DNA of 47,294 nucleotides. It comes from Desulfobacteraceae bacterium. GTDB taxonomy: Bacteria; Desulfobacterota; Desulfobacteria; Desulfobacterales; Desulfosalsimonadaceae. Of the stretch, positions 22,204 through 39,000 are shown piece after piece. Position 1 is the first letter of the stretch, and every line of letters starts with the position of its first letter. The stretch lies in NCBI GenBank assembly GCA_027858815.1, contig JAQIBZ010000214.1, positions 1-47,294 on the forward strand. Reading direction: 5' to 3'. The notes beneath the pieces were generated by a model. It saw nothing but the letters and a program-made list of their open reading frames with translations, searched no databases and was not told the origin of the DNA. The position numbers and the translations under genes were made by a program.

Positions 22204-24252
22204 CTAATCCATAATCGCCTTCAACAGAGCATCTTTAACATCTGAGTAAAACTGAATATCGATTTTGGTGGCCATGTCATCAGATAGGTCAAACAGTTGT
22301 TTACGGCATGAAACCGGCATTAACAATGCCATAGCGCCTTTTTCAACTGCAATCTCAGTAATGTTTACGGCACTATGAATCGGTTCAATGGAGCCGCCCA
22401 GATTGACTTCTCCGCAAATGATTAATCCGCCGCGAATTGATTTTTTTAACAGGGCTGTACAAAGAGCGATTAATGCGGCAACGCCAATTTTCGACCCTAA
22501 TTTTGACGCATCAAATGCCCTTAACTGTACTGTAAATTCATGGTGGCGCGGGTCTTTATCCCCTACAAGTTGAGTCGATCGGGTATAAAGATTCTGTTCC
22601 GCGTATCCCATGCTTTCGCGAAAGGCCACCGGAATCGGCTTGTTCAGGATTTTAACACCGGAACCAGGTCCTTCATTGATTTCAAGGCGATAAAGGCCGG
22701 GATTATCCTCCAAGCCACCCGGGCTTATGGTCCAAACCTGCCCAGGTTCTAACGGATCTCCGCCAATACTGTTTTCGCTATGCAGTTCCGGCGTGGAAAC
22801 AAATTTTTCGACACCATCAGCCCCCAATACATAGCTGAAATGCGTATTACGAAATTCGGCCGCCCCGATGCGCTTTTGCTGTTCTTTTACTCGCCTTCTG
22901 GCTTCAAGGGCAATCCGCACTGCCCATTCAAGATCCTCTTCCGGAACTGTATTCTCATCGCCCGGATAGAGTAATTTTAATAATCCACTAATGGTTTTAT
23001 TAACAGCATTGGTGTCGCGCCCGCTGAGTGCGCCGCCAAAGAATACCCTGTTTTGGATATGCGATACCCTGCTTTGATTACGCAACTGGCTCCAGCATTC
23101 GGATATAAAATCGCTCACCAATCCAAAATGATCAGTGAGCATTTCTTTTTGTATTTTGGGAACATCCCATCCCGGAAGATATGCATGAATTCGATCCATA
23201 AAGGCGGTGTCATCTCTCATCTCTGGCGGCATTGGTCCGAAAAGGTGGCCAATACGTTGCTGATGCTCAACATCTACTTCGAAATTGCCGACAAGAACGA
23301 TACTGCCATCGGCTCGGATGCTGTCCTTGCCCCTGCTGAATTCGCCCGATTCCATATATCCCTTCATGATGTTGACGCCATCTTTTTGATCAAAGGATAT
23401 ACCGGATATTTCGTCAAAACAGACCACATCATATTGGCAAACCAGGCCGCGCTGGCCGGTTCCCATATGAACAAACATCCTTGCAACTGATGCTTTTCCA
23501 CCGGAAATCAGATGGGCATAGGGAGAGACCTGCTGAAATAAGTGGCTTTTGCCCGTACCCCGGGGGCCGAGTTCAACGATATTATAGTTTCGCTCGACAA
23601 ACGGCACCATCCGCAAAAGAAAGGCATTTTTCTGGCGTTCATCCAGCGTTTCAGGTTCAATACCAATACTCCGAAGTAAAAAAGATTTCCATTCATCTGT
23701 TGTAAACTTATCTCTTGCTTCAGCCAGCGTATCCAGAACCTCTCTTTTCGAGAGTTGAATTTCTCTTAAGTTTGCAATGCCAAAGGGATGGCCCTTGGTT
23801 TCCTGGGAAATTGCCGGATCATAGGTAAGTGTAATTTCGGAATAAAAACCGCCAGTCAGCATTCTTTCATGCCTATTGACAAGATCTCCACTGATTCGGA
23901 CATCCGTCAGTCTTAAACTCGGTAAAGTGGCAATGTATGAATCTGTTCTCGCATCCAGGCGGGCAGTAATCAGATCAATTATTTTAACTTCGCCATTCTC
24001 CCGCGCTTTTGCTTTAAAAAGCTCTTCTTCTCCCGCTTTGACACTTCGTGATTTTAGTTGTCGCTGGACAATTTCCAGGCCCTCTTCAATCTCTTCCTGA
24101 TCAATACTGGCGCAATATCGCCCCAACAGAAACTCAACCACATACGTCGGAACCGGAAACTGACGGCTGAAGGTTCTCACAAGGTCTTTACGGACCAGAT
24201 ATCCATCCAAAGACGATGCTGCGAGTTTATCAATATGATCCAATTCGATCAT
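22204..24252 (-). CDS. brxL: BREX Lon-like protease BrxL
   Basis: 682 aa. N-terminus LDGYLVRKDLVRTFSRQFPVPTYVVEFLLGRYCAS is typical of BrxL. It has an AAA-like core (ELGPRGTGKSH) and a Lon protease-like C-terminus. The ATG overlaps the pglZ stop (ATGA). Confidence 0.85.
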   Translation of the reverse strand: MIELDHIDKLAASSLDGYLVRKDLVRTFSRQFPVPTYVVEFLLGRYCASIDQEEIEEGLEIVQRQLKSRSVKAGEEELFKAKARENGEVKIIDLITARLDARTDSYIATLPSLRLTDVRISGDLVNRHERMLTGGFYSEITLTYDPAISQETKGHPFGIANLREIQLSKREVLDTLAEARDKFTTDEWKSFLLRSIGIEPETLDERQKNAFLLRMVPFVERNYNIVELGPRGTGKSHLFQQVSPYAHLISGGKASVARMFVHMGTGQRGLVCQYDVVCFDEISGISFDQKDGVNIMKGYMESGEFSRGKDSIRADGSIVLVGNFEVDVEHQQRIGHLFGPMPPEMRDDTAFMDRIHAYLPGWDVPKIQKEMLTDHFGLVSDFISECWSQLRNQSRVSHIQNRVFFGGALSGRDTNAVNKTISGLLKLLYPGDENTVPEEDLEWAVRIALEARRRVKEQQKRIGAAEFRNTHFSYVLGADGVEKFVSTPELHSENSIGGDPLEPGQVWTISPGGLEDNPGLYRLEINEGPGSGVKILNKPIPVAFRESMGYAEQNLYTRSTQLVGDKDPRHHEFTVQLRAFDASKLGSKIGVAALIALCTALLKKSIRGGLIICGEVNLGGSIEPIHSAVNITEIAVEKGAMALLMPVSCRKQLFDLSDDMATKIDIQFYSDVKDALLKAIMD

Positions 24253-26597
24253 TTATCACCTCCACCAATCAATGTGACAACCTGAGCCACAAGTTCATTG
24301 TTTTGGTCAATCACCACAATAGTCGCTTCACTTCCTTCCAGTTCTTCATTTTCAACCAGTACAGAGGCGATCCCATCTTTTTTAAAAGATTTCAGATTGT
24401 CAATGATGCTTGAGGCGCTATTTCCAGGCTGCTGCCGGATATCCAGCGATAACCATTCAATGTCCCCTTCCACGGCAACACGGCACCGCATTCCTTTCCA
24501 TTGCACATCGGCAATTTTTATTAGATCCGCTGCTTTCATTGACTTCCCGGGAAGAGCAATTAACTCCAGTGTCAGGCATTCCTGAAAGCTCAGACCGCCA
24601 TGGGAATATTCCAGTCCGTTACGGAAACAACTCACTCCATGGGCTATGGCAATTTGCTGATTTGGATTCCAATACCATGGGTAAAGATTTTCCTGGATCA
24701 CTGCGCCAGATTTTATGATTGCACATCGTCCCCACTTATTATCGGTGAGGGCGCTTGGAAGTTCATCTTTGGGCAACCCGCCGGGGACCAAAAGCCAACC
24801 GTGATCCGTTACCACACGCACGCGCTTCCATCCGGCATCCAGCAACCGGAGAATGCGGTCCTGTATTTCATTTAAATAGCCGTCGATATACTTCGATAAT
24901 TTCCACCCTTTTTCATGGCCTTCATGGTCAATATTGCCGAATTCGGTCCACCCTCGCGCCTGCTTATCTCCAACGCTTTTAGAATCAATGACTTCCCAGC
25001 CCGAATCTTTCAGCAATTTTTTAAAGTGATATCCGCCTTTAAGGGATTGCCCGGCGTCCTTGTCGTTGGGTTCAAAATCAACGCTGGTTTCCAGGCCGCG
25101 TATCTGCATTTTAACCGGTGACACAGCGGGTTTTCCGGTGGCGGTGATACTGGGAAGTGCGGCCCATACCGGTTTTTCACTCACCTGGCATCCGGCATGA
25201 TCCAGTTTTTCAGATAACCGTTTGGCCACATCAAATCGAAGACCATCAACAAACAAAATACATTCGCCTGCTGAATAGGACGACAATTTGGATTTTTCAA
25301 GTGGTCCCCCGGGATAACCATACTGATCTGCTATTTTCTGCAGATACCGTGCGGCTTCTTCCGCCCATGGCAGATATACGGCCCGAATGGCAGCAAAAAC
25401 CGCATCCGCGTCATCATTGTCTGAAACCAACAAAAGGGCCTGCATAACTGCTTCATCGGCACGCCATCCGGAATTTACATACCCCGCGGAAATGTCATCC
25501 ATAGTACCTGCGGTTAAGCTGTCCCCGGTTATTCGTGCCAGAACCGCCAAATGTGCCAGCGCCCGAGCAAGCGGGGCCTGTCCCAGTTCCGCCCAAACCA
25601 GTTTGCGTCTGTCCGCGTGTTTTTTTTCAAGATCCAGAAGCTGCTTGCGGGCTTTATGGTCCGGAAAAGTTTCAAGGCGCTTCAGGTCATTGCGAAGACG
25701 GGTTTCCGCACTTTCATTCCATTGGGGCCATGCGCCGTGGGACTCGGCATTTGAAAACAAATCCACTGGCGGCAGGGCACATTTTTTGATCTGGCCGGGG
25801 ATATTCGGATATTTGTGCGGCGCCTCGCAGAACCGTTCCCAGGCGCCATGCCAGGGACCTTCATGTCTGGCAAGTTTTTCAACGCCGATCAGGGCGCCGT
25901 CATTTTCCAGGTGAAATGCAAATTGTGATTTGCAGACACTCACAAATGCCGTGAATTCATTTTCACCCCGTCCGGAACGGAATGCATCCCCCTGGTCCAG
26001 CCATTGCAGTAGATCCCGAACCGGGTCACCACTGGTTAACAAGGTATTAAAATAATCCTTGTCCAGATGTTTGCCTTTTAAAAAGTCAACGGGTTCATCC
26101 ATCAGCGGATACAAGCCCAGCAGCATGGCATTTTTGGTGTCATTATCCCGGGCCACATCCAGCCCCAATCCGCCCTGATCGGACTTCAAAAACGCCATGA
26201 CCGTCCAGTCCTTTGCATTGACCTGGGACCATATCACCCCGCGATATTGCAATTCCGCCAGGGGTTTTAAATAATCCGGGCAGCTTTCAACAGCCCGGAG
26301 GTCCTGACGGCCCACGCCCGGCAAATATAAGATGGGCGGATTCTCCCGCGCAATGTCAAACCTTTCCACTTTACCGGCAATCACGCACCGCAGCCAGATC
26401 GCCGGTCCTTTTTGATTGTCCGGTGCGTATTCGCCCAGGACAAACAGTTCCGGCAGTTCATTTTGCAGATAAGGGATTATCGCTTCCCATTGCCGGTCCC
26501 GATCCGGCCAAAGGATACAGGCAGGTGCTGACTGGACTTCGGGATTAAAAACAGCGGCGTCACGGACAGCTTTCAGGAGATGATCAAGCACCCTCAT
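24249..26597 (-). CDS. pglZ: BREX alkaline-phosphatase-superfamily protein PglZ
   Basis: About 780 aa with ACILWPDRDRQWE N-terminus and a PglZ domain (ILFVDGLRFD, VTDHGW). The ATG at 26597 overlaps the stop of the upstream gene (ATGA); the track ORF starts at 26615. Confidence 0.85.
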   Translation of the reverse strand: MRVLDHLLKAVRDAAVFNPEVQSAPACILWPDRDRQWEAIIPYLQNELPELFVLGEYAPDNQKGPAIWLRCVIAGKVERFDIARENPPILYLPGVGRQDLRAVESCPDYLKPLAELQYRGVIWSQVNAKDWTVMAFLKSDQGGLGLDVARDNDTKNAMLLGLYPLMDEPVDFLKGKHLDKDYFNTLLTSGDPVRDLLQWLDQGDAFRSGRGENEFTAFVSVCKSQFAFHLENDGALIGVEKLARHEGPWHGAWERFCEAPHKYPNIPGQIKKCALPPVDLFSNAESHGAWPQWNESAETRLRNDLKRLETFPDHKARKQLLDLEKKHADRRKLVWAELGQAPLARALAHLAVLARITGDSLTAGTMDDISAGYVNSGWRADEAVMQALLLVSDNDDADAVFAAIRAVYLPWAEEAARYLQKIADQYGYPGGPLEKSKLSSYSAGECILFVDGLRFDVAKRLSEKLDHAGCQVSEKPVWAALPSITATGKPAVSPVKMQIRGLETSVDFEPNDKDAGQSLKGGYHFKKLLKDSGWEVIDSKSVGDKQARGWTEFGNIDHEGHEKGWKLSKYIDGYLNEIQDRILRLLDAGWKRVRVVTDHGWLLVPGGLPKDELPSALTDNKWGRCAIIKSGAVIQENLYPWYWNPNQQIAIAHGVSCFRNGLEYSHGGLSFQECLTLELIALPGKSMKAADLIKIADVQWKGMRCRVAVEGDIEWLSLDIRQQPGNSASSIIDNLKSFKKDGIASVLVENEELEGSEATIVVIDQNNELVAQVVTLIGGGDK

Positions 26598-28123
26598 TTT
26601 TGTCCGACCTCCCATCGCCCTTGCTTCCGCGACCCGATACGGTGCAAAATTCCGGCTTTCTTGAGTTTCTGAATATGCCGTTTGATGGTCGAGGCGCTTA
26701 CCCCCACCTTTTCCGCCAATTGAAGATAATCGCTTTGCGGATCTTTCCGGATGGCAGTTATAAGGTCAGCATGGATTTTTAAAAGGTCATTTATCGGGTC
26801 ACCCTGACCTTTTATGTGACCTTTTACCCTTTGTTTTTCCGCGATATCACCTGTGGCTTGTGGGCTTAAAGGTCTATTTATAAGTTCAAACTGACCTTTT
26901 ACCTGTTGAATGGTGGTTTGCAAATAATCATCCGTGACCTTAAAAATCGGTTCCACTCCCACCGCCTTCAACGCCGGCACAACCTTGGTTCGCACCCCCA
27001 TGCCTCGGGCGTCCACATACCCATAATCCCTCAGCACTTCCACAATGATATGATTCCTGGCCGAACGTTGACCGGCAAGCATTTTATCAATGGTCATGGC
27101 ATTGGGCAGTGCGCCGGGGCTGATAATTTCAAGGCGGTTTTTATATCCGACGATTTCAACATCCACAAATCGGGACCAATCCCGGTGGGCCAGGGCATTA
27201 ACCAATAATTCCCGAAGGGCTTCGTAGGGATAAAACCAGATTTTTTCCCGCCGGAAATTTTCGTCAATGCTGTCGGGTTCCAAGGTCACAAAAGGTTCCA
27301 TTGTTTCCAGGGTTTTTTCGATCAAGCCAGCGTCGATGAGTGTTTTTCCGGCTTTTCCCACCTGAAACCGTCCCACCAAAGGGGCATCTATCACTTTGTC
27401 CAGCCGAGCCTGATATTCTTTGTCCAGCGAGTCAAAAAACATGAGTCTGACGCCGGAATGTTTCAATGTCTGCCGGGGTTTGACGCCAAACAGCACCAGT
27501 CCGGCGATGGTGCAAACCGGTGCATCCGCAACGCTGTCCGTCATAAACCCCAAAGCTTTCAGTCGGTCAATCCAGGCATTTCTTTCACCAGGCACTTCCG
27601 GGTCCCGCAGAATATCTCGCAGATAGTTCTCCAACCGGGCCATATCCAGAGAATCAATGGACGTGCGGTTTACCGGCATAATTTCCGGGTGCACCGCACC
27701 GGAAGCCGCACCAAGCATTAAAAGTTGTTCCCGGGAGGCCGGCCGGGTCACACTGCCGATCCGTACATAGGCTGTTTCCCGGTCATTGGCCCTTACCACA
27801 TAGGGTTTGAAGATTTCGGGGCCGATGGTGATCACGGCCACCCGACGGCCCTCCCCCATGGCGACTTCTTCGTAATAGGGCAGAATCTGCGGATGCACAT
27901 ACCGGCCAAATACCGTATCCGCCACCCATTCGCTTAAGTTCTTGCGAAAAATGCCCGAGATGGTTCCGTCATCTTCCACGCCCAAAAGAATGCGGCCGCC
28001 TTTGAGATTGGCAAGGGCCACAATTTCCCTGGCCAACTGCTCGGGCCGGATGTCATCCCGCTTGAATTCAACGCCGGAATTCTCGCCATTGGCTATCAGG
28101 TCAAAAATGTCTTGTTTTTTCAT
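26594..28123 (-). CDS. AlbA_2 / Schlafen-like divergent-AAA protein with HATPase_c_4-like middle and C-terminal wHTH
   Basis: N-terminus IANGENSGVEFKRDDIRPEQLAREIVALANLKGGRILLGVEDDGTISG (AlbA_2-type). Middle is EALRELLVNALAHRDWS...LEIISPGALP. C-terminus is LQLAEKVGVSASTIKRHIQKLKKAGIL. AGGAGC RBS upstream. Confidence 0.7.
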   Translation of the reverse strand: MKKQDIFDLIANGENSGVEFKRDDIRPEQLAREIVALANLKGGRILLGVEDDGTISGIFRKNLSEWVADTVFGRYVHPQILPYYEEVAMGEGRRVAVITIGPEIFKPYVVRANDRETAYVRIGSVTRPASREQLLMLGAASGAVHPEIMPVNRTSIDSLDMARLENYLRDILRDPEVPGERNAWIDRLKALGFMTDSVADAPVCTIAGLVLFGVKPRQTLKHSGVRLMFFDSLDKEYQARLDKVIDAPLVGRFQVGKAGKTLIDAGLIEKTLETMEPFVTLEPDSIDENFRREKIWFYPYEALRELLVNALAHRDWSRFVDVEIVGYKNRLEIISPGALPNAMTIDKMLAGQRSARNHIIVEVLRDYGYVDARGMGVRTKVVPALKAVGVEPIFKVTDDYLQTTIQQVKGQFELINRPLSPQATGDIAEKQRVKGHIKGQGDPINDLLKIHADLITAIRKDPQSDYLQLAEKVGVSASTIKRHIQKLKKAGILHRIGSRKQGRWEVGQK

Positions 28124-28172
28124 TGAGCTCCTCTTGTCGACGACAAAAGATAGAAGAGAGACGCATAACGAA

Positions 28173-29186
28173 TCATAAGGTCTTCTCCATCATTTCCACT
28201 AATGCCATTTCCAGGCGTTCATCTTCTTCATCCTGCAGGCTGAGATAGAGAGAAAAATGGTCCACGCGATTGTTTTTTACAAACAATGCCGGGTCATACC
28301 GCCACAACTCTATGCGGCAAGTACCTGTGTCTTCAACAGGAATCTGCTCAACCCGGTCCGCGAGCTTTTTCCAGTCACGGCGGCCCAATGCATAGACCGG
28401 TTCATTCGGCGGAACCAGCATACTCAGGTCCGCAAGTGCGATTTCGCCCGCTTTCATCCGCTGATCTGGCGGCAGATGATCCTCCTTTATACGGAGTATT
28501 TTACGCACCGGGGTACGCAAATACGGCAGGGCTTCCTGCCACAAGGTGCGTCCGTCAGTGGGAAAATCAAGCAACCGTTCACGGCCTTCACGGGTTATTT
28601 GACCCAAACCGCTTCCTTCGATCTCATCCAGCGCCCGTGTCATAGACATTCCGGCATAACCCAGTTTGCCGGCCAATTCCTTGGGGGTGGTCGGTGTTTT
28701 TATCCCGCCATTGAGCGCATAAATCAGAACCGCCTGGGTCGCCGGTGTGAACGTTTCCGTTTTAGCCGGTGCCCTTGCTGTTTTTCGGGCTTGCGCAGCA
28801 ACCCCCAATTCCGGCCAATACAACTGTTGTCCGGGTATCACAAAAGGAATATGCCGTTCGATCAAACGGCGACGGGTGTATCCCGGCAACTCCTGAGCAA
28901 TCAGGCAGAAATCATCAAAAGCATCATTTGCCATGATCTGGCGCAGGTGTTTTTCAAATGCGGCGGGACGAAAGTTTTCGATATCTTTGATCATGATTCC
29001 CAGGAAAGCCCGTTTACCAACAGTGAGTTTCCGCAACGCATATTGTTGATTCAAGTAGTGAGGCAATGGTCTGGATACAGCTTTGCCCCAGGTGACAGGC
29101 ATGCCGGCCAGCTTAGTGATGTATTCAATAAATCGATGTGCTAAATTTTCCATGAGATATAATAACTTTTTTTTGTACAATAACAT
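28173..29186 (-). CDS. Hypothetical protein with central winged-helix motif (unassigned family)
   Basis: 326-337 aa with TPKELAGKLGYAGMSMTRALDEIEGSGLG as an HTH-like segment. The start is uncertain (29186 or ATG 29153). The long antisense ORF 28257..29144 has an implausible R/C/Q/F-rich composition. Confidence 0.55.
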   Translation of the reverse strand: MLLYKKKLLYLMENLAHRFIEYITKLAGMPVTWGKAVSRPLPHYLNQQYALRKLTVGKRAFLGIMIKDIENFRPAAFEKHLRQIMANDAFDDFCLIAQELPGYTRRRLIERHIPFVIPGQQLYWPELGVAAQARKTARAPAKTETFTPATQAVLIYALNGGIKTPTTPKELAGKLGYAGMSMTRALDEIEGSGLGQITREGRERLLDFPTDGRTLWQEALPYLRTPVRKILRIKEDHLPPDQRMKAGEIALADLSMLVPPNEPVYALGRRDWKKLADRVEQIPVEDTGTCRIELWRYDPALFVKNNRVDHFSLYLSLQDEEDERLEMALVEMMEKTL

Positions 29187-29215
29187 TTAAAAAGTTACTA
29201 TGCAAAATAAATGTT

Positions 29216-29240
29216 TCTAAGTTGTTAAAAACAACTTAGA
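29216..29240. promoter_or_regulatory. Perfect palindrome TCTAAGTTGTT-AAA-AACAACTTAGA
   Basis: 11-bp arms read directly, about 30-60 nt upstream of the wHTH gene start candidates. Confidence 0.5.
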
Positions 29241-29256
29241 TGGCCGGATTTTAAAT

Positions 29257-29281
29257 AGTTAATTGCGATCGGCAATTAACT
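29257..29281. promoter_or_regulatory. Perfect palindrome AGTTAATTGC-GATCG-GCAATTAACT
   Basis: 10-bp arms read directly, in the same intergenic region. Confidence 0.5.
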
Positions 29282-29305
29282 TAAAGCATAAACATGCAAC
29301 ATCTT

Positions 29306-29633
29306 TTAGAGTTTGAATAAGCGCATGGCCTGATCCACCAGTTTGGTGGTACGGGCGTCAATCCTGGCCTCGTTCCAATCTGTTTCGGAAGCCAAGTCCC
29401 CATTTGGTTTCAGTCCATTCTTATAACCAATCCCCCGGACCGATGCGTTTTTCCGGTGCTTAGTCGCCAAGGGCCAGGAGTTCAGACAACTCGGCCTGCA
29501 GGCCTGGTATCACTGCTTCAAACTGTCAGTCGCGGTCCGGCCAAAGTATGCATGCCGGTGCTACTTGAATTTCCGGGTTATAAATGGCAGCACTCCGGAT
29601 CGCTTCCGTTAATATTTCATTCACCAATGTCAT
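29306..29633 (-). pseudogene. Decayed N-terminal remnant of a second pglZ fused to an unidentifiable C-terminal fragment
   Basis: Minus-strand translation from ATG 29633 gives MTLVNEILTEAIRSAAIYNPEIQVAPACILWPDRD*QFEAVIPGLQAELSELLALGD*APEKRIGP. It aligns with the intact PglZ N-terminus (MRVLDHLLKAVRDAAVFNPEVQSAPACILWPDRDRQWEAIIPYLQNELPELFVLGEYAPDNQKGP). The two in-frame stops fall where R and Y are expected. The rest, in another frame, reads GIGYKNGLKPNGDLASETDWNEARIDARTTKLVDQAMRLFKL* and ends at 29306. Confidence 0.75.
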
Positions 29634-30295
29634 GCCAGAGCCTCAAGGCGATTTAACCAGTCATTGAATAACGGGCATTCGCCGCGCATTTTATCCAAAC
29701 CGATTTCCAGCGCAGCCAGTGAACCATGTATCGGTTTATCATATTCTGAATAAATCCTTATGATGCGTTTGCTCGGGGCCGTTTCAGGGTTATCATTGAT
29801 TTCCTCCGGTGAATCAAATTTTTCCCGTATACCTCTAAAGCGACGTTCCAGCTCGTTTCGGTCGATACCTTGCGCCAATGCGGCCGGGTCACTGAATAAA
29901 AGCGCCTCGAATTCATGCATCTGTATGTAGGGAATAAAGCGGCGCAGAGGATCTTTTGTCAATTTCTCCTTTAAGGCATCAGAAAGCATATGCAGCAGGC
30001 AGTCCGACTTCTCCTGACTGTTGATTTTCTGTTGTGATTCCGTTTTCCCGGGGAAGTTGTTGGGTAGGCCATAGAAATCAAAAAAAGTCGTACAGTAGGC
30101 GTCCGGATCACCTTGTAGCCGGATGCGCAGATCCGTCAGAAGCCGTTCAAATTTAAAATTACCCCCTTTATGCCCGGGTTTTCCGATCAGAGATGGATAA
30201 AGATAGATGTCACGAGAAATAAAATAGTTGGCGAGCACTTGGTGAATGAACATTTCCTCGGTTTGGCCTTCGCAGATCACATGCACCCTAATCAT
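29630..30295 (-). CDS. DUF4276-like protein (predicted Toprim-like partner of the upstream ATPase)
   Basis: Starts MIRVHVICEGQTEEMFIHQVL. ATGA overlap with the ATPase stop (30292-30295) and ATGA overlap of its own stop with the pglZ remnant start. The family name is from memory of this N-terminal motif and the ATPase pairing. Confidence 0.6.
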   Translation of the reverse strand: MIRVHVICEGQTEEMFIHQVLANYFISRDIYLYPSLIGKPGHKGGNFKFERLLTDLRIRLQGDPDAYCTTFFDFYGLPNNFPGKTESQQKINSQEKSDCLLHMLSDALKEKLTKDPLRRFIPYIQMHEFEALLFSDPAALAQGIDRNELERRFRGIREKFDSPEEINDNPETAPSKRIIRIYSEYDKPIHGSLAALEIGLDKMRGECPLFNDWLNRLEALA

Positions 30296-31404
30296 TTGGT
30301 CGGCCTCCCCCCCAAAATGTTCTTTTCCCAAAGTTCACCGACCGAGTATTCCTCCAGCCATGTTTTAAAGTCTTGTTCAGAATATTGCTTGAAGATCGTC
30401 TCTCCTTGTTCCCTCTCAACTATAACAAGGTCATCGATTGAAAATTCATTAACCAAAGGCACGGACTGAGTCGAGACGATCAATTGCATCCGTTTTGAGG
30501 CCGAGCGCAGCAGGCCACCCAATAGGGAAATGGCATATGGATGGAGGCCGAGCTCCGGTTCGTCGATAATAATCGTGGAAGGCGGGTCCGGTTGCAACAA
30601 TGCCGTAACCAGGCAAATAAACCGGATGGAGCCATCTGATAACTGGTTTGGCCAGAATGCATAATCACTGTCTTTTTGCCGCCAGAGAAGCCGGATCTGT
30701 TGTTCTTCTGATTCAAGTGATTGTGGCTTGAGAACAAAGTCATCAAAAAAAGGTATGGCAAGGCGTGTGGTTTTGCGGATCTGCTGGTAGACTTTGGGGT
30801 GTTCCTTATTCAGTCGATATAAAAAGGCAGACAGGTTGGATGCATCTGATCGTAGATATTCATTATCATGAAGCGAGCCAATTCGTTTAACTCCAGCGGT
30901 GTCGCTGGTATCATGGAAATGGTAGACTTTCCAACTGGAAATGGAGCTGTAGCAATAATCCGCCACGCTTCCTTTATTCAATTTTTCGAATTCTTCCTTG
31001 AGTTTTGCTTCCAGGTGTCCGGCACCTAATTTTATCCATTTAGGCCCGTAATGTGGTCCCTTGAAGAATAATTCCTCATTTGCAAAAGAGAACCCGCCGT
31101 CAATCGTAGGTTCAAGCGTGAATCTGTATCCATTCAATGCGAATTCGATGAAAGACTCAATCTTGCTCGTTTCCTTCACCCCAAAGCTGACAATACGGTC
31201 TGACGATCCCTGATTGCGCGTCCAGCTTTGCTGCCGGCCTTCGACCATCTCGCCGAGCATACGAAAATAGGAAACGAAATTGCTCTTACCGGCACCATTG
31301 GCGCCGATCAGCACATTTAAGTTTCCGAGCGTAAATTTTTCAAGGTTCCTGATGGATTTGAAACCTTTGATGGTCAGCCGGTCTATTTCTTTTTTTGTGC
31401 TCAT
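30292..31404 (-). CDS. ABC/SMC-like AAA ATPase (AAA_15/AAA_21-type)
   Basis: Walker A LIGANGAGKSNF, signature-like QLSDGSIRF, Walker B/D-loop TIIIDEPELGLHP. ATGA overlap with the pglX stop. Confidence 0.8.
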   Translation of the reverse strand: MSTKKEIDRLTIKGFKSIRNLEKFTLGNLNVLIGANGAGKSNFVSYFRMLGEMVEGRQQSWTRNQGSSDRIVSFGVKETSKIESFIEFALNGYRFTLEPTIDGGFSFANEELFFKGPHYGPKWIKLGAGHLEAKLKEEFEKLNKGSVADYCYSSISSWKVYHFHDTSDTAGVKRIGSLHDNEYLRSDASNLSAFLYRLNKEHPKVYQQIRKTTRLAIPFFDDFVLKPQSLESEEQQIRLLWRQKDSDYAFWPNQLSDGSIRFICLVTALLQPDPPSTIIIDEPELGLHPYAISLLGGLLRSASKRMQLIVSTQSVPLVNEFSIDDLVIVEREQGETIFKQYSEQDFKTWLEEYSVGELWEKNILGGRPTK

Positions 31405-34400
31405 GATCCCGCCTCCCGTGCGGCGCTTTTTTCAGCCAGCCTTAAATGATGGTCATTGATACGGTCACCTTTGTTGCCGCCATATTGGGGGCCAAGATGA
31501 TACCAAGGAGCGGATTTTACATCCTTGCCCCGGTCTTTTTTCCAGTGGATATTGGGCTTGTCGCGTAAACACCCGGCGCCGCGTTTACCCAAATCGGGAA
31601 CGGACATGAAGGGACGGATATTGAGACGAACACCGTCGTTTAGATCCGGGTTCCAGCCCATGGGTTGTTTTTCGATGGGTTTCCAGCGGACAAAGATATC
31701 ATAGGGAGCTTCTCCTTCGAGAATCAGCTCCAGTTTTTTCTTTAATGATTCAGCCGCAGCCAATTTTTCCTGAGCACCATCAATGCCGTTTGCAATATCC
31801 TGTTTCTGGCGGGTGATCCAATCGCCCAGATAGGTATAGATCAGGGTTTCCAGGTTTTTGTAATCCAGTTTGTGATAATTCACAAGAGCAGCAAACCCGT
31901 CATGCATTCCGTCCCAGATATGCCAGATAAAAGGTCGGTGGTGGAATAGCTTGCAATGCTGAATAAAAAATTTGTCTCGCAGCCAGGTATCCAGGGTTTT
32001 GCCTACATGGTCGCTATTTTTAAGGAGCTGGCCAAGCCAATTTTGAAAAGTGGCAGTGGAAGCGGCATCCTGCCGCTTTTTATCAAGAGGCTGGAAGCCT
32101 CTTCCACTTTCCCACACAGCGGCCAAGAGATTGATCAACCGGTCAGCGGCGGAAGATTCGCCGCGCAATGGCGAAATACAGACAATGCCGTCTTCATCGG
32201 CAAAAGGCAGTAGCTCCCTTGTTTGCTCCACCCAGGCACGGGATTCATCAGAAAGTTCCATAGTGGAAGCGCCATCCTGGCGCTTGTTTTCAAGCGGCTG
32301 GAAGCCGCTTCCACTCTCCAGTTCCGCAGGCCATCGGTAACCAAGGAGGCAAGCAACAGCAACCTGCAAAACAGTAGCATCAGTGCGCAATGTAGAAGCG
32401 ACTTCCAGTCGCTTTTTCTCTTCATCCCAGATCACCGAGCCGCTTGGGTGGCCATGGAAAATCCATTGGGTGGGGTCGTCGGAGTATGGTTTTGGCAGGC
32501 CGTTGGGGTATTTTTCTTCGGCGACCTTGGTCCAGTGGTCGAGGTCGAATGGGACTTTGGTTATTGTTGCAGCCGTTACTTTAAGGGATTGATCGACAGC
32601 GCGAACATTGTCATGAAAATCACTCGATTCAACATATGCCCATATTACTGGAATGGCGCTATTATTCGTTGGGCAAATAGGACATACGTTATCATCAAAA
32701 GCTGAACCTGAATATAAAAATGGCTCTAATTTTTTCATTTTGTTCACAACCACGCCTTTACGATTGAAAACATTTTGACCATGCAACCTACATCCAAGTT
32801 GAGAGTTCAGTTCAACGTCATCTAATGGGACCTTGCAGACTTGCCCACGCCCTGACCAGGGCGATAACCCGTTTGGAGAATTAAGCCAGTAAACATGTGT
32901 ATCAGCGACTTTTGGAAACTCCCAAAAATTCATTAAAAATCTTGGGCAATCTCCGGTAGTGCTTCCTTTACCGTAATCAGCCACATTGGCTAATAAAACT
33001 TCATTTGAAAGATCATCAAACACCACCCTTGCATCTGGATTATCCAATTGTTTGGCCTGTTCCACGCCTTTGATTTCACTTGTCAATAATCCCGTGGCTT
33101 TTTCTTCGGCATTATATGGTTCAGAGACATCCAGGCCGTAAAAGTAACCAGATCTGGGCGACATAGCTACTTCTTCACCCCGACTCAATGAAATCAGAAT
33201 TGCCTTAACCACTTCTCCACTAATTGTCTCAAACGCCCCAGACCCTAATCGTGCAATCAAATGCCAGGTATCGTTTTTAAGTAATTTTTCTCTGAATTTC
33301 TTGTAGCTGGTTAAAAACAGCCAGTTCTGCGGAAGCACAATACTCGTGGAGCCACCCTTTTTAGACAATTCCAGACAACGATCCAGAAACACAGTCGCCA
33401 AATCGTTTTTGCTTTTCGGGTAATGTTTTTCACTAAATTTTCTTAGCGTTTCACCTTGCTTGCCCCTCTTCAGATAAGGCACATTGGTAATCATCCAATA
33501 ATATTTACCAGCCAAAATCTGCGCGGCCTTTGCCAATCCCTGAGCAGTCACGCCGATTTCCCGCTCCTCGAACGCCCGATCTTTTTGCAAAACTGTTTCA
33601 ACAGCCGTGGCCAGTCCATCCCACTGCACCAATTTTGCCACGGCAGTGCGCATGGGATCAATCAAACTGCCAAGCACAGGCGCATATTTAAACTCCTCAT
33701 AAAGGCCGACCAGGGCCAGGCGAAGCTTGGAGTCCCCATTAGCCAATTTTTCCCATTCGGATCGGGGCACACTCACGGACAATCCGGAACATGCCACATT
33801 CATTTCCGGTAATTGACGGTAACCACCAGAGTCAGGATACTTCCATGCCTCGATCGCCAAGGCAAAGGCAGCCAATTCCACACAGCGTTTGTCAATTTCT
33901 AGGCCATGGATATTTTCCCGCAGCACCGCATCCACTGCCTCACGGACGGTCAGGTCTTCGAGTTCTATACGCATGGGCACCAGCATTAAAAAAGCCGCTA
34001 CCAGGAAATGGCCAGACCCACAGCAGGGGTCAAGGGTTTTAAGTTCACTTAAATACTTCGGCCACCCGCCAAATGTGCCGGCAGCTGGTTGCCAAATAGT
34101 GGAAGCGGCATCCTGCCGCTTTTTATCAAGCGACTGGAAGTCGCTTCCACTTCCACTTCTCTTACAAGCAGAGTGCCCCCTGATATACAGCCTTATTTTC
34201 TCCAATTGCGCCGGATTCCGGACAATATGATCGAAAGATTCCTTTTGCCAAAAAACACCGCTTCTTCGTGCTGCCTTATTAATTTCGTTTGCAGTGAATG
34301 ACTTCCATGAATGAAGAATCCCTGAGAGATCATGTCCACCCTTGGGAGTTACCAAGACATGGATATGATTGGGCATTACCACGAAATCATCCAGGTCATA

Positions 34401-35576
34401 ACGATCACCGTCAAAATGTTTTAACGCATTTTCAACGATCGTTTTATATTCAGCGTGTTTGAGCAAACATTCGCCATAACCCTGATCGAGCCATTTTTGG
34501 ATACGGTTGGAAAATTTTTCATAGAACTCTTTTTTTGTTTTTTCATCGTGAGGTTCAGGATGCTGTTTTAGCCACTCGTCTTTTTCAGTTTGCCATGATT
34601 TCAGCTTTTCCTGTGGGAGAGAATCGGAGGTTCGGAAAGTGACAAAGTAGGTAACGCCTTCCTGTCTCCAATGAGGAAGATTTCCTGAAAGGTTGGCTAT
34701 CTCTTCGTCTTTATGGAAATAGTCGATTTCTTTCAAGCGGCTGGAAGCCGCTTCTACTTTCACAAACCGAAGGTATTCCAAAGGCACACCAGGAAGGGAT
34801 GCTTTTTGACGAAGTTCTTCTTCTGTTTGTGCATTTTTCAGATCAGCTTCACTTAAGCGCCTTGCCGCCCACCAGGCCCCCAAAGAATTATCCAAAAGAA
34901 AAGACACCATATAGGGTTCTGTAAAAAGCTGGGTCACCGCCGGGAGTTCCCGGGCGCCGATCTTTACTTCTGATGCGTTGACCTCTTCCTTCTTCTTGGC
35001 CTGCCAGAACTGATATACCCAGCCCAAGGAATCAGAAGCAGTAAAAACATCTACTGATAAATCGGCTATGAGGCGCTCCAACCTTTGCTGGTGTTCCGGC
35101 GGTAGTGTGAGTTGAAACACTGGTGAATCGATCCGGAAAATCTGGGGCAACATGCGCGCGGCATATTTTGCTGCCAGTTCCCACCCATTTTTGGCACCTT
35201 CATCATGGGCCAGATCTTCACAATCCTGAAGGGTAACAGGGACCGGATCATCCGGGTCCGGATACATGAGCAGGTTGTTTTCTGCTAAAAATCGAGCAAA
35301 TAGCATGCGGTGCCAGTGCTCATAAGCCACTTCTTCAATGAGCCTCTCAATCTCTTGAACTTGAGTATCACCGTTGCGATTATCACCCAACTGACGGCCA
35401 TGGGCACGCAATTGAACCCTCAGTTTCCGATCATCTTCAGTAAGATGTGAAAATGGCTTGGCCTCGCCCACGCCAAGTTGATTTAAGGATGCATTGGCCG
35501 CTTCCTCGGCGATGTCCCGGGCGTCCTTGACAGTACGTTCCAGTTTGTTTCGGAGTGCTTTTTCCAGTGGCTGCAT
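31401..35576 (-). CDS. pglX: BREX N6-adenine DNA methyltransferase PglX, 1391 aa, with in-frame RAYT and REP insertions
   Basis: PglX-type N-terminus with motif I LDPCCGSGHFLV and motif IV MITNVPY. GAGG RBS lies 5 nt upstream of ATG 35576. The ORF is uninterrupted despite the insertions listed separately. Confidence 0.85.
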   Translation of the reverse strand: MQPLEKALRNKLERTVKDARDIAEEAANASLNQLGVGEAKPFSHLTEDDRKLRVQLRAHGRQLGDNRNGDTQVQEIERLIEEVAYEHWHRMLFARFLAENNLLMYPDPDDPVPVTLQDCEDLAHDEGAKNGWELAAKYAARMLPQIFRIDSPVFQLTLPPEHQQRLERLIADLSVDVFTASDSLGWVYQFWQAKKKEEVNASEVKIGARELPAVTQLFTEPYMVSFLLDNSLGAWWAARRLSEADLKNAQTEEELRQKASLPGVPLEYLRFVKVEAASSRLKEIDYFHKDEEIANLSGNLPHWRQEGVTYFVTFRTSDSLPQEKLKSWQTEKDEWLKQHPEPHDEKTKKEFYEKFSNRIQKWLDQGYGECLLKHAEYKTIVENALKHFDGDRYDLDDFVVMPNHIHVLVTPKGGHDLSGILHSWKSFTANEINKAARRSGVFWQKESFDHIVRNPAQLEKIRLYIRGHSACKRSGSGSDFQSLDKKRQDAASTIWQPAAGTFGGWPKYLSELKTLDPCCGSGHFLVAAFLMLVPMRIELEDLTVREAVDAVLRENIHGLEIDKRCVELAAFALAIEAWKYPDSGGYRQLPEMNVACSGLSVSVPRSEWEKLANGDSKLRLALVGLYEEFKYAPVLGSLIDPMRTAVAKLVQWDGLATAVETVLQKDRAFEEREIGVTAQGLAKAAQILAGKYYWMITNVPYLKRGKQGETLRKFSEKHYPKSKNDLATVFLDRCLELSKKGGSTSIVLPQNWLFLTSYKKFREKLLKNDTWHLIARLGSGAFETISGEVVKAILISLSRGEEVAMSPRSGYFYGLDVSEPYNAEEKATGLLTSEIKGVEQAKQLDNPDARVVFDDLSNEVLLANVADYGKGSTTGDCPRFLMNFWEFPKVADTHVYWLNSPNGLSPWSGRGQVCKVPLDDVELNSQLGCRLHGQNVFNRKGVVVNKMKKLEPFLYSGSAFDDNVCPICPTNNSAIPVIWAYVESSDFHDNVRAVDQSLKVTAATITKVPFDLDHWTKVAEEKYPNGLPKPYSDDPTQWIFHGHPSGSVIWDEEKKRLEVASTLRTDATVLQVAVACLLGYRWPAELESGSGFQPLENKRQDGASTMELSDESRAWVEQTRELLPFADEDGIVCISPLRGESSAADRLINLLAAVWESGRGFQPLDKKRQDAASTATFQNWLGQLLKNSDHVGKTLDTWLRDKFFIQHCKLFHHRPFIWHIWDGMHDGFAALVNYHKLDYKNLETLIYTYLGDWITRQKQDIANGIDGAQEKLAAAESLKKKLELILEGEAPYDIFVRWKPIEKQPMGWNPDLNDGVRLNIRPFMSVPDLGKRGAGCLRDKPNIHWKKDRGKDVKSAPWYHLGPQYGGNKGDRINDHHLRLAEKSAAREAGS
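32056..32107 (-). repeat. REP copy A (52 nt, two hairpins plus closing stem) inside pglX
   Basis: GTGGAAGCGGCATCCTGCCGCTTTTTATCAAGAGGCTGGAAGCCTCTTCCAC, translated in frame as SGRGFQPLDKKRQDAAST. Confidence 0.85.
32263..32314 (-). repeat. REP copy B inside pglX
   Basis: GTGGAAGCGCCATCCTGGCGCTTGTTTTCAAGCGGCTGGAAGCCGCTTCCAC. Both stems differ from copy A by compensatory changes. Translated as SGSGFQPLENKRQDGAST. Confidence 0.85.
34099..34150 (-). repeat. REP copy C inside pglX, directly downstream (gene sense) of the RAYT domain
   Basis: GTGGAAGCGGCATCCTGCCGCTTTTTATCAAGCGACTGGAAGTCGCTTCCAC, translated as GSDFQSLDKKRQDAAST. Confidence 0.85.
34173..34679 (-). mobile_element. REP-associated tyrosine transposase (RAYT, IS200/IS605-like HUH-Y1) domain read in frame within pglX
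   Basis: LPHWRQEGVTYFVTFRTSDSLP...DDFVVMPNHIHVLVTP (HUH)...SWKSFTANEINK...VFWQKESFDHIVRN...RLYIRGH (candidate catalytic Tyr). No own ATG or RBS is visible. Confidence 0.75.
34731..34757 (-). repeat. Half REP (second hairpin only) upstream (gene sense) of the RAYT domain
   Basis: TTTCAAGCGGCTGGAAGCCGCTTCTAC matches the right half of copy B with 1 difference. It is read in a different frame, as VEAASSRLK. Confidence 0.75.
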
Positions 35577-36038
35577 AACACCTCAGAGTTGCCGGGAAAG
35601 AATCCCGGCCTACGATGACGAATTCTTTTTTGGTAGGTCGGGATTTCATTCCCGACATTGATCTGCATTAAAATTTACGTTTTTATTGCAACATTCATTG
35701 CGCGTGAGCATTAAAATGCGCATTTAATGGCTTTTTAATGATGGATTCACATTAAATGTCACATTAAACCAATTTTAATGTGATCGGGAATGTGAATTCA
35801 CATTCGGTTCATCAAATGGTCCGAAACCATTTTGCGGGCCATTTAAAAAAAATTGGCCCTACATCGGCCCGGGTGCAATTATCGGTGCACTTTCATGGAT
35901 ATTTGCACATTTTAAGAGTTGGTCAAATGGTACAAATCCATTCTTGAACCATTGTTTGATTAAAATGGACCAAAAAATGGCGCAATACCATTGCGGGTAA
36001 TCCGACCCCCTTTCCGGGCGGTTCGCATAACGCAGCTC
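35577..36038 (-). promoter_or_regulatory. 460-nt non-coding region between brxC and pglX, dense in palindromic operator-like sites; probable internal promoter/regulatory region
   Basis: No ORF of 60 aa or more. Three AAATGG-N7-CCATT sites (35814-35832, 35925-35942, 35975-35992). Perfect palindromes at 35759-35783 and 35788-35805 share TCACATT half-sites. Hairpins lie just upstream of the pglX RBS. Confidence 0.6.
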
Positions 36039-39000
36039 CTATTTAATCGCAATCGGTCCCTGATTCAAGGCAGACCTGAGCAGTTGTCCTGTTTCCTTGA
36101 TCCATGCGTCAATATCATCATCTGTTTTAAGGGTTCGCCGGGGAACTTTGACGAATTTAACTTCCGGCTCCATTAAAACGGCGGCGGCTTCAATGACTTT
36201 GTCAAACCGGGAGGACATGGCCGCCACCCGATCAATTAACATAGGCAACGGGAATTTTCGTAATGTGACCAGTACATCATTTGTGGTCTGTACATTTATC
36301 TCCGGTTTTGTTTTTTCCGTCAGCATTTGTTCTGACAGGAGATGATTGCGTTGCTCCGGTTCCAGTTGTTTCCAGTTGTCATCTTCTCTTAACCGGTTCA
36401 TACCGTTTTCGTGATTTTTCTGATATTGCGCGTCCAGATCATTTAGCGCGTCGCGCAGGGTCTGGGTCACATTTAAGATCAAGGGCGACACCGGGTCCGG
36501 ATCGGACAGCAACAGGCGCTGTTCTTCAACTTTGGCCACCTGGGCGGAATAGACGTCCCCATCTTTTAATTCCCGGGCCTGGGTAAGCAGCGCTTTGAGG
36601 GTTTCCCATGCCGGGAGGCGTTTTTCAATGCGGTCTGCCAAATCTTTCCATTGATCAATGGCCCGGAAAAATTCATCGCGCTGGGTATAAATCGCCAGTA
36701 ACTGTTCGTTGCCGGCCAGCAGGCGGATTTCATTTAATGCGGACGTATCCGGCAAAACGGGTTTGGGCGCATCACCCCCGGCACACGATGCCAGATTCAA
36801 CAGTTTATCAATAAATTGCGGGGCCATGATGAGTTCTTCCCCGGATTTGGCCTGGCAGCCGATTTTTTGCATGACTTTACGGATCTGAATGCGCTGGGCC
36901 GTTGTCACGGTGGTCGCCTCAATTTTATACAGGGCTTTTCCCATGGCTTTGCGTTCCAGCTCACGCGGATCAACGGGCTTGCCATGATCGTCCGCGGCGC
37001 GAATCAGGCCGGCCACCAGAAGCACCTGCAGCCCGCCGTCCACCGCATCCCGGGACCACCCAAAGGGCGGGGTTTCAAAGTGCTGACGGAGTTCCGCCCC
37101 TTTTTTCCCGCTGCCGATAGCACCCATAATGGCTTTACACACCGGGTTATTGGAAGCTTCATCGTCAAAACCCACTGCTTTTAAAGCATCTGGTGCACCT
37201 TTCTTAGCATTTGAATAGACTTTGTCCCATCCTTTATGGTCTGATATTTGAAATTGATCATAAAGGCGAATTAAGGCATTTTTTGCAGCTTCAAGGACCA
37301 TTTCTTGTAAGTTGTTTCCAATGATTTCATTGCCACCACCCTGAAAAACACGGGCACCTGAAAACGCTTCTCCCAAAAGTTCATTTATTTTTGCTTCTGC
37401 ACTCTGACGGGTAGTTTTCATTGCAGAACGTGCTTCCTGGCCTTCCGGAGTATTGGGCACCCCTCGAATTTCCAGAGTGGAATGAGCTGCTTTATAAACA
37501 AGCAAATTGTGCCTGAGATCATCCGCAGAACGTCTGGGTATATAGACAAACACCGTTGGCGAGTGATTCCCAGCCTGCCGGGCATCTGCGAGAACTGTAT
37601 TTTCAGGGTCACGCCAACCGTCTCTGATCCAGATATAAATTTTCTGAGTGTGATCACTCGGCAATTGTGCGTCAAAAACCGGAAAAATATCGCGACTGAC
37701 AATGGAAGTGCCCTGAGTAAGGGATAATTTTTTGACTAATATTGAAAATCCTGCACGGATGCGATCAACCCGCTCTGCCTCAATACGATGGGCTGTATTT
37801 GCCAATTGACTGCGTTGGTTTTGAAATTCATCATTCCATGCTGCGCTTTCTTCTGTCTGGATGCGGTATTCATCCCCGACTTTCATTAAAAGTTCACATT
37901 TATCAAGTAAAGCAGGAAGTTTGTTTCGCAGGTTGCTACTGCCTACTGAAAGATCATCCACCATTAAATCGGCAATAGAATCGATGGTTGCCTTGATTCC
38001 GATTTCGTTGTTTTTCCCCCCCAACTTATTGATCAGAAAAATAATCCCACATGCACGGGACGTACATCTTTCATCTGCCGTTCCGCTGACCCATTTCATG
38101 GTCTTTTCATGAATTTTTCGTGGCAGGATACGGGATTGGAGCAACTTATCCGCTGAGTCAAAATATAAATAATCCGCCGGCACGACATTTCCTAAGGGCT
38201 CATCCAGATTGCTCTGGATCACTTTATGGATCATGCTGAGCTGATTACGGAGCTGGCTTTCGGTTCCGGTTTGATCCAGCACCCGCAGCGTGTTTTCCCA
38301 AAAGCGTCGGCGGACCGGAAGAATAGGGTAATCCTTTTCAAAACAGGGAATATCATCCTGATGATGGCCGATGGTTGTGCCTGCTAAATGTCTGGAGATT
38401 TCTCCGAGATTCGTTTCCATTTTCTTTTTTATAAGCGGAATGGCTTCAGCGGTTTTGGCTAAAACGACCTTTCGGATGACAGTGTCCACATCAGTATCAG
38501 ACAATTCAATGCGGACCGTAAAACGGCCTTCAAGTTTTTTCAGATTGCGCGTCCCGGTGACGGCAGTTTGTCCGGTCCCCACAAATAAAAGTTTGCCGCC
38601 GATCTGCTTACAGCATGCTTCCACCACTTCCTGAACGGCATTGGAACGCTCAGGGTCTCCCTCTCCGATATATTGCTGCACTTCATCAAGGGCAATGAGC
38701 GATAGGGGGAACTTTCCATCACGAGTCAAGGCATCCCGAATGCTTTTAATCATTTCATCATTGCTGATATCCGAAACATTTGGATACAGACGGGTCATGA
38801 TTTCAACAGCGCTGTTATCTCGAGAAAATACTTTCGGCTTAACTACGCAAAGGGCTTCATATAAGCCTTCGGCAACATGAAAATTGTCAATTTCGGTCTG
38901 CCAGTTATATCCGTTATTTTCAACATGCTTGCAGATTTCATCATAAATGCCTTCTGATTTAAGCCACATGACAAAACGTGCTACCGGGTATTGTTCCGGC

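Follow-up and report, generated by a model that had tools for sequence, protein, structure and literature searches.

The window analysed here, a stretch of 47,294 nucleotides (nt) from a Desulfobacteraceae bacterium, carries a complete type 1 BREX (bacteriophage exclusion) operon on its minus strand, between 22.2 and 40.8 kb, whose six core genes are intact and in order according to PADLOC, Pfam and NCBIfam. The genes follow one another as brxA, brxB, brxC, pglX, HEC-01A, HEC-01B, a short scar, a winged helix-turn-helix (wHTH)-like gene, a gene for a Schlafen/AlbA_2-HATPase_c_4-wHTH protein, pglZ and brxL, and all features given below lie on this strand. The scar, at positions 29306-29633, holds fragments of two genes side by side, the 5' end of a second pglZ (pglZ') and the 3' end of a GmrSD-type restriction gene ('gmrSD). 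It is likely that this is non-functional DNA left by recombination of two BREX-1 loci with different accessory cassettes, a judgement that covers both the identity of the scar and its origin. Both fragments can be identified, the DNA is colinear with both parental arrangements, and the similarity to the closest relative, locus L094 (our numbering of the loci compared), is mosaic. The 20 kb around the scar are also found in two other JGI (Joint Genome Institute) metagenome contigs (L001 and L002), 99.8-99.96% identical, and since the same sequence stands in three assemblies the scar is no assembly accident.

The pglZ and gmrSD fragments

The upstream fragment consists of the first 66 codons of a gene for a BREX-1 PglZ of type B (29436..29633), as assigned by tblastn and by NCBIfam model NF033450. 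Read from the ATG at 29633-29631, its frame gives MTLVNEILTEAIRSAAIYNPEIQVAPACILWPDRD, QFEAVIPGLQAELSELLALGD and APEKRIGPGDWL, each running into a stop codon, and this ATG overlaps the stop (TGA, 29632-29630) of HEC-01B, which encodes a DUF4276 protein, in an ATGA. A tblastn search of the whole window with the resident PglZ returned the fossil as the sole second match (residues 3-75, 41/73 identical or 56%, E 5e-19), with 32 of 48 residues (67%) identical over the NPE..GP stretch, and the repaired fossil peptide matched NF033450 at model positions 3-68 (E 1.2e-21). An earlier reading of this DNA, made from its sequence only, had proposed the fossil N-terminus of a second pglZ, about 65 minus-strand codons long and about two thirds identical over NPE..GP, behind an ATGA overlap at 29630-29633; the tblastn search that it called for is significant and its coordinates for the overlap agree with ours. 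It had also read TGA and TAA in place of Arg and Tyr, and in the homologue alignment the in-frame TGA (29528-29526) does fall at a conserved Arg and the TAA (29462-29460) at a Tyr of the homologues.

We compared the fossil with 118 intact homologues, in which 27 of 70 columns are at least 95% conserved. Its sole deviations from these columns are W38F and the junction residues 67-68; PglZ homology therefore stops after Gly-Pro 65-66, where it had been thought by eye to be lost, and the fragment is only mildly decayed. In DNA the fossil is 63% identical to the 5' end of the resident pglZ, and third codon positions agree in 25 of 69 cases (36%), so that the fossil is not a recent duplication, again as supposed from the sequence. 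Given this divergence and the mild decay of the fossil, the two pglZ 5' ends must already have been divergent when joined. What remains is a fragment and not a gene, since it comprises codons 1-66 only, contains two in-frame stops and has no complete open reading frame (ORF) for the phosphatase domain. Gene callers report a 35-aa ORF here (MTLV...PDRD). For annotation, the 35-aa and 67-aa ORFs of the scar are pseudogene fragments of pglZ and gmrSD, not hypothetical proteins.

The gene from which the fossil derives once sat directly after HEC-01B, and the ATGA coupling is still intact: in at least 16 loci HEC-01B is directly followed by pglZ, with an ATGA overlap in L016 and L020 identical to that of the window. 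Among the 31 loci with a match to the PglZ N-terminus, the window's own is the only one with a second such N-terminus. A search with the repaired peptide returned 29 short proteins, four of which we examined; L090 and L092 proved to be true deletion remnants, and L098 and L099 frameshifted long-read assemblies. Those 29 proteins do not support a recurrence of double pglZ N-termini.

The downstream fragment (29306..~29437) preserves the last ~44-45 codons of a GmrSD/BrxU-type (DUF262+DUF1524) type IV restriction gene, recognised by profile search, in a frame that closes with ..RGIGYKNGLKPNGDLASETDWNEARIDARTTKLVDQAMRLFKL at its own stop (TAA, 29308-29306). A profile made from six BREX-embedded GmrSD proteins had this tail as its sole match among the 1393 six-frame ORFs of the window (E 2.8e-12), and the match covers model positions 542-592 of 597, the extreme C-terminus. 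The tail is 54-64% identical to the GmrSD C-termini of L087/88, L095-L098 and L100. In L087/L088 the GmrSD gene lies directly upstream of the wHTH gene, and the window aligns colinearly with L088, without interruption, from the tail of GmrSD in the direction of the wHTH gene. Pfam assigned no domain to the tail alone, DUF262 (GmrSD_N) and DUF1524 (GmrSD_C) are absent, and the window holds no other match to the GmrSD profile. The tail had been taken for unrelated sequence whose origin should be searched for; it is the C-terminus of a GmrSD/BrxU-type restriction enzyme.

The two fragments meet in GGTCCGGGGGATTGGTTA (29424..29441), delimited from the reading frames and the homologue alignments, where the PglZ reading ..GP(GDWL) overlaps the GmrSD reading ..(VR)GIGY. 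Both frames can claim GGGGGATTGGTTA, with the parents of either side distant, and a few bases of microhomology at the pglZ'/'gmrSD join are plausible. The join puts pglZ codon 66 onto the C-terminal region of GmrSD, that is, it unites two non-homologous genes. Recombination inside pglZ, as first envisaged, does not describe this end, where the old pglZ meets the GmrSD 3' end after codon 66, so that the join is non-homologous. Nor was it made by homology between the two pglZ 5' ends, given their identity in DNA and at third positions.

Just past the stop of the GmrSD fossil, a hairpin can be read from the sequence (GTTAATTGC-CGATC-GCAATTAAC, 29258..29280), and a consensus scan found a terminator-like hairpin, TCTAAGTTGTTTTTAACAACTTAGA, with a T-rich run at 29216..29240. 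A 26-nt exact match to the latter stands upstream of the wHTH gene of L094, and this hairpin is probably the old GmrSD terminator. Searched against Rfam, the interval 22.0-41.2 kb matched no family, and a megablast of 28100-31500 against E. coli genomes gave no match.

Parental arrangements and mosaic similarity

Both arrangements from which the scar can be composed exist elsewhere. A scan for HEC-01B that took one genome per species found pglX, HEC-01, pglZ and brxL directly in this order in at least 16 genomes, so the pglX-ATPase-DUF4276-pglZ-brxL arrangement that had been postulated as ancestral is a real one. The other order, GmrSD, wHTH, a 256-aa protein, pglZ and brxL, is that of L087/L088. 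More generally, pglX and pglZ enclose a variable bay that holds HEC-01, GmrSD, DUF932, Septu, AIPR, wHTH with a 255-aa protein, and Schlafen genes in differing combinations. HEC-01 occurs there alone in some loci, with GmrSD in L014 and L100, with DUF932 and GmrSD in L013, and with GmrSD and Septu in L019; GmrSD is accompanied by DUF932 in L096 and by a large ATPase in L095. In L094 the bay contains AIPR, wHTH and the 255-aa protein, and in L086 wHTH and a ~255-aa protein stand right after the end of pglX; L083 starts like L086, and no pglZ was detected on it. The loci with an intact GmrSD gene between pglX and pglZ are L013, L014, L019, L095, L096, L098 and L100.

Several of these loci are themselves reduced or broken. 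L088 (5607-13703) is a half-locus beside glyQ with no brxABC-pglX in the 5.6 kb upstream, and in L087/L088 GmrSD and pglZ are each split in two ORFs, which may be decay or sequencing error. The AIPR-wHTH intergenic region of L094 (2773-2832) contains 60 nt that are 87% identical to window 26778-26837, which encodes residues ~429-448 of the Schlafen/AlbA_2 protein (KQKIKGHVKGQDDLINDLL); this piece makes a further gene-fragment scar within the bay. L092 (1-4908, JGI 3300077993) is a 'skeleton' BREX, and both L092 and L090 have lost core BREX genes and kept accessory cassettes. The AlbA_2 piece of L094, the orphan wHTH-254aa-pglZ' of L090 and the skeleton of L092 suggest that such scars are not rare.

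The closest relative that we found is L094, the only locus close enough for a test of congruence. Against it, the 3' part of pglX is 86-88% identical in DNA and drops within the last ~270 nt, first to 78% and finally to 64%, which places a breakpoint in the pglX 3' end at ~31.5-31.7 kb (similarity decays over 31401-~31676, the last ~130-270 nt). The wHTH gene is 78% identical and its promoter region ~90%, and the sequences cannot be aligned where the Schlafen gene stands in for that of the 255-aa partner. In pglZ identity is 76%, then abruptly 99-100% from ~24.40-24.45 kb, ~150-200 nt before the stop; here a second breakpoint (24400..24450) lies in the last ~60 codons, at which mismatches fall from 13-21 to 0-2 per 50 nt, and over 24146-24359 (214 nt) no mismatch to L094 occurs. 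In brxL mean identity is 94% (87-100% by 300-nt window).

We used L095 for a three-way control on means of 300-nt windows. In pglZ the pairs among window, L094 and L095 are equidistant (76/72/73%), and in brxL the window pairs with L094 as its sister (94% vs 76/75%), which together with the breakpoint means that pglZ and brxL have different histories. Incongruence, for which the earlier reading had suggested comparing brxABC/pglX with pglZ/brxL, is present between pglZ and brxL, and with it a junction of modules of unlike history. The earlier proposal of a foreign wHTH-AlbA_2-pglZ-brxL module may hold for its first three genes and fails for brxL, which belongs to no imported block because similarity to L094 jumps, from ~76% to 99-100%, already within the pglZ 3' end. 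The C-terminus of PglX carries a GPQYGG indel of the type of most HEC-01-linked loci, absent from its closest pglX relatives L094, L095 and L096. Identity matrices with L003, L007, L016, L020, L035 and L087 were uninformative for congruence, all PglZ pairs being 51-58% identical.

Base composition fits this division to a mild degree. The pglZ, Schlafen and wHTH genes have a G+C content of 50.7-51.2%, as against 46.0% for brxL, 46% for HEC-01 and 45.6% for the window, and in the six other loci having both genes pglZ and brxL lie within ~2.5 points of each other. The impression that 24.5-29.2 kb is richer in G+C was correct, with wHTH-AlbA_2-pglZ some 5 points above its neighbours, a modest excess.

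Origin of the scar

The simplest account of these observations would be a single event of the kind known as homology-facilitated illegitimate recombination. It would start from a pair of BREX-1 loci that differed in the cassettes between pglX and pglZ, one ordered pglX-HEC-01A-HEC-01B-pglZ-brxL and the other GmrSD-wHTH-partner-pglZ-brxL. One end would have been joined non-homologously, with at most a few bases of microhomology in the junction zone, and the other probably resolved where BREX sequence is conserved, through ordinary homologous recombination. A 'gmrSD-wHTH-Schlafen-pglZ block reaching from 29.44 to ~24.4 kb, with codons 1 to ~730 of its pglZ, would have replaced most of the old pglZ, its homologous end lying in the last ~60 pglZ codons, so that brxL stays native. 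The outcome would be a chimeric operon that is nonetheless complete, with six intact core genes, in which pglZ and brxL would now stand behind the wHTH gene's own conserved promoter/operator (described below). The event is ordinary in kind, and this is a well-resolved case of it, informative on the turnover of BREX accessory genes.

That the 3' end of the operon was replaced had already been claimed from the sequence; the junction is real, and the direction is not established, the opposite one giving the same structure. Read that way, a piece made up of the pglX 3' end, HEC-01A, HEC-01B and the pglZ 5' end replaced most of GmrSD in a resident pglX-GmrSD-wHTH-Schlafen-pglZ-brxL locus, with homology in the pglX 3' end as its anchor on one side and an illegitimate join within the GmrSD 3' end on the other. 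The fall of pglX similarity to L094 (from 86-88% through 78% to 64% over the last ~270 nt) speaks for it, as do the GPQYGG indel shared with most HEC-01 loci and missing from L094, L095 and L096, and the occurrence of HEC-01, a compact cassette of two genes, in many contexts unrelated to one another. It is at odds with composition, the outlier in G+C being wHTH-Schlafen-pglZ while HEC-01 (46%) matches both backbone and window, and it needs a separate event for the sharp breakpoint at 24.4 kb. Because of the G+C content and this breakpoint we slightly prefer replacement of the old pglZ by the 'gmrSD-wHTH-Schlafen-pglZ block, and leave a substantial minority of our belief to the opposite direction. 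Several points weigh against our preference. The breakpoint at 24.4 kb is defined only against L094 and could stem from the L094 lineage or from a separate, more recent event, and that in the pglX 3' end fits the opposite direction equally well. The microhomology at the junction is only plausible. Tetranucleotide composition, a check suggested with the earlier reading, does not single out the wHTH-Schlafen-pglZ segment and is not decisive, and an efflux-pump gene at 15-20 kb is equally rich in G+C. Finally, the databases searched hold no close parent of either half (the best matches are 80% identical for HEC-01A, 79% for wHTH and 77% for PglZ), for which reason donor, recipient and exact crossover cannot be named.

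Other routes seem less probable. Tandem BREX loci, or a full locus beside a 3' half-locus like that of L087/L088, might have stood in one defence island and been fused by an internal deletion from pglZ codon 66 to the GmrSD 3' end downstream. Half-loci of the form GmrSD-wHTH-256aa-pglZ-brxL without brxABC-pglX do exist (L087/L088), and deletion remnants of BREX are common, L090 keeping wHTH-254aa-pglZ' alone; we nevertheless consider this unlikely, since no tandem arrangement occurs among the ~100 loci fetched and deletion alone does not explain the breakpoint at 24.4 kb. It would in any case yield the same chimeric operon and is thus a variant of recombination between two loci rather than a true alternative. 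A Campbell-type insertion, in which a circular cassette with a 5' segment of pglZ enters by a single homologous crossover in pglZ, would naturally leave two pglZ 5' ends flanking the inserted genes. Between these ends DNA identity is 63% and third positions are saturated, and the fossil has barely decayed at conserved columns; the pglZ copies were therefore never similar enough for a homologous crossover in these 200 nt, and we rejected such a duplication on the divergence of the two ends, keeping for it almost no probability. An equally slight chance is left to a chimeric metagenome assembly or to a functional small ORF or leader peptide (35 aa) coupled to HEC-01B. The sequence does come from a metagenome contig, the 35-aa ORF is called and the ATGA coupling is kept, but the three assemblies agree, and a mis-join would create neither in-frame stops nor a union of two non-homologous genes. 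The ORF is not conserved, has no Rfam match, and finds no counterpart as a second PglZ N-terminus in the other loci of the 31.

Taken as the product of recombination between two BREX-1 loci, the scar would have consequences beyond this operon. Exchange would proceed by recombination between divergent BREX loci, with breakpoints in conserved ends of core genes and occasional non-homologous joins, and the replacement of cassettes could take a core gene, pglZ, with it. If so, a BREX operon that looks functional can be a chimera, its PglZ not having co-evolved with BrxC, PglX or BrxL, which bears on the question of which BREX proteins must match each other. It is conceivable, and we propose it tentatively, as something we would sooner doubt than assume, that the unusually conserved 3' end of pglX, the initial ~70 codons of pglZ, and the 3' end of pglZ together with brxL serve as recombination anchors for a systematic exchange of the bay, and even of pglZ, among BREX-1 type-B loci. 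The first ~70 codons of pglZ have a mean identity of ~78% in amino acids across relatives that are ~62% identical overall. If this were true, gene-fragment fossils such as the scar, the AlbA_2 fragment of L094, wHTH-254aa-pglZ' of L090 and L092 would record failed or illegitimate exchanges and could be mined to reconstruct the turnover of BREX repertoires.

The operon and its relation to known systems

The first three core genes, brxA (40027-40815), brxB (39489-40040) and brxC (36039-39482), were assigned by PADLOC, and pglX (31401..35576, 1391 aa) by Pfam and PADLOC, as were the two genes behind it, HEC-01A (30292..31404), for an OLD/AriA-like ABC ATPase of 370 aa (AAA_21), and HEC-01B (29630..30295), for the DUF4276 protein of 221 aa (Pfam E 1.6e-55, PADLOC HEC-01B). 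The start of the latter is ATG 30295 and not TTG 30331, an exact protein match being to the ATG version, and DUF4276 has been placed in the TOPRIM superfamily (PMC12065111). Downstream of the scar and the wHTH-like gene (28173..29153, 326 aa) come the gene for the Schlafen/AlbA_2-HATPase_c_4-wHTH protein (26594..28123, 509 aa, Pfam), an architecture reported as BREX-linked (PMC12839542), the resident pglZ (24249..26597), intact and of BREX-1 type B (935.7 bits over NCBIfam model positions 2-672 of 675; PADLOC), and brxL (22204..24252; Pfam, PADLOC), whose product is 98% identical in amino acids to that of L094. ATGA junctions occur at five places: pglX/HEC-01A, HEC-01A/HEC-01B, HEC-01B/fossil, Schlafen/pglZ and pglZ/brxL.

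The wHTH gene has homologues in L083-L090 and L094. Its product fell in no family of Pfam, PADLOC or NCBIfam, the homologue in L083 has a weak MarR/Crp HTH match, and for the wHTH protein as for the 255-aa partner we found no relative of solved structure or in NCBIfam. In every locus that has it, the wHTH gene stands two places ahead of pglZ, and what normally comes next is the gene of the uncharacterised ~255-aa partner, its stop overlapping the start of pglZ; in the window the Schlafen protein takes this place. Directly upstream lies a promoter/operator-like block (29161..29215; TAACATTT..GTAACTTTTTAAATGTTAT..AAAAAAAAGTTATT) defined by columns invariant in seven loci. It is AT-rich, with repeated GTAAC/GTTAT half-sites (..TAACATTT..GTAACTTTTTAAATGTTAT..GTTATT), and precedes every wHTH gene compared (L083, L085, L086, L088, L090, L094 and the window), being invariant even in L090, where the wHTH protein is only 40% identical. 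The block is probably an autoregulated promoter/operator, which would also drive pglZ and brxL. In L090 (GCA_900089805.1, 8222-10261) the wHTH gene, a 254-aa gene and a pglZ stub of ~75 codons persist beside housekeeping genes with no BREX, which suggests that the wHTH/254-aa pair is an autonomous two-gene module.

Two further features concern pglX and the sequence before it. PglX has three in-frame insertions that set it apart from seven or eight other PglX proteins (the number varies with the region). The largest (34098-34762), of ~220 aa, contains an IS200/RAYT-like Y1 transposase domain (Pfam Y1_Tnp, E 3.5e-7) with the HxH motif NHIHVLV, and has copies of a 58-nt self-complementary element at its boundaries. 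The remaining two (32055-32112 and 32262-32319) are 16-17 aa long (..SGSGFQPLENKRQDGAST..) and are encoded by the same palindromic element, similar to repetitive extragenic palindromic (REP) sequences, read in one phase. These two C-terminal insertions are also present in L094. The 47-kb window has no further copy of the element, and it is unusual for an open methyltransferase gene to contain a REP/RAYT-like element. Between brxC and pglX lie 460 nt of non-coding sequence (35577-36038), in place of the ~10-15 nt of other loci. Of these, 331 nt are 92% identical to L095 1482-1811, which stands upstream of pglX and after an AlbA_2 gene, the PglX proteins being only 56% identical. Within this non-coding stretch lies an inverted repeat (35742-35800). 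The stretch has no Rfam match, and could be mobile sequence or else a conserved element with a regulatory or RNA role.

The nearest described parallel is the type 1 BREX island of Salmonella Typhimurium D23580, which, according to excerpted text of PMC11341690, has an embedded PARIS system (ariA/ariB), an OLD-like ABC ATPase with a TOPRIM-family nuclease. HEC-01A/B is a pair of the same kind amid core genes, an AAA_21 ATPase with a DUF4276 protein of the TOPRIM superfamily (PMC12065111). Unlike in Salmonella, the nuclease partner in the window is DUF4276 rather than DUF4435/AriB, and a second cassette (wHTH and Schlafen) follows. The Salmonella pair presumably lies between pglX and pglZ. The cassettes of the window are moreover separated by a gene-fragment scar, of which the excerpted text of PMC11341690 makes no mention for D23580. 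The same excerpts describe BrxU, of the GmrSD family, as co-located with BREX-1 on pEFER (PMC11341690; also cited in PMC12839542). Both that enzyme and the fossil represent the GmrSD family in company with BREX-1, the window retaining only the last ~44 codons, with the enzyme gone. A 2026 survey in Nucleic Acids Research found GmrSD-type HNH enzymes, OLD-ABC + TOPRIM pairs and Schlafen-minimal histidine kinase-wHTH proteins to be widely linked to BREX (PMC12839542), and all three kinds of these auxiliary or backup effectors are present or fossilised in the window's locus. A word search of that survey met no mention of pseudogenes, recombination or mosaic structure, and the scar is direct sequence-level evidence on the exchange of such accessory 'backup' defence genes nested in BREX.

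Homology-facilitated illegitimate recombination is a known process, and capsule and O-antigen loci are known for flank-anchored exchange of cassettes. As in those loci, variable cassettes lie here between conserved flanks, and one end of the exchange falls in conserved sequence (the pglZ 3' end with brxL, or the pglX 3' end) while the other joins unrelated genes; for the window, the microhomology and the single event are what we infer. Accessory genes embedded in BREX have thus been described before, and the scar, together with the breakpoints against L094, adds evidence on how their cassettes are exchanged.

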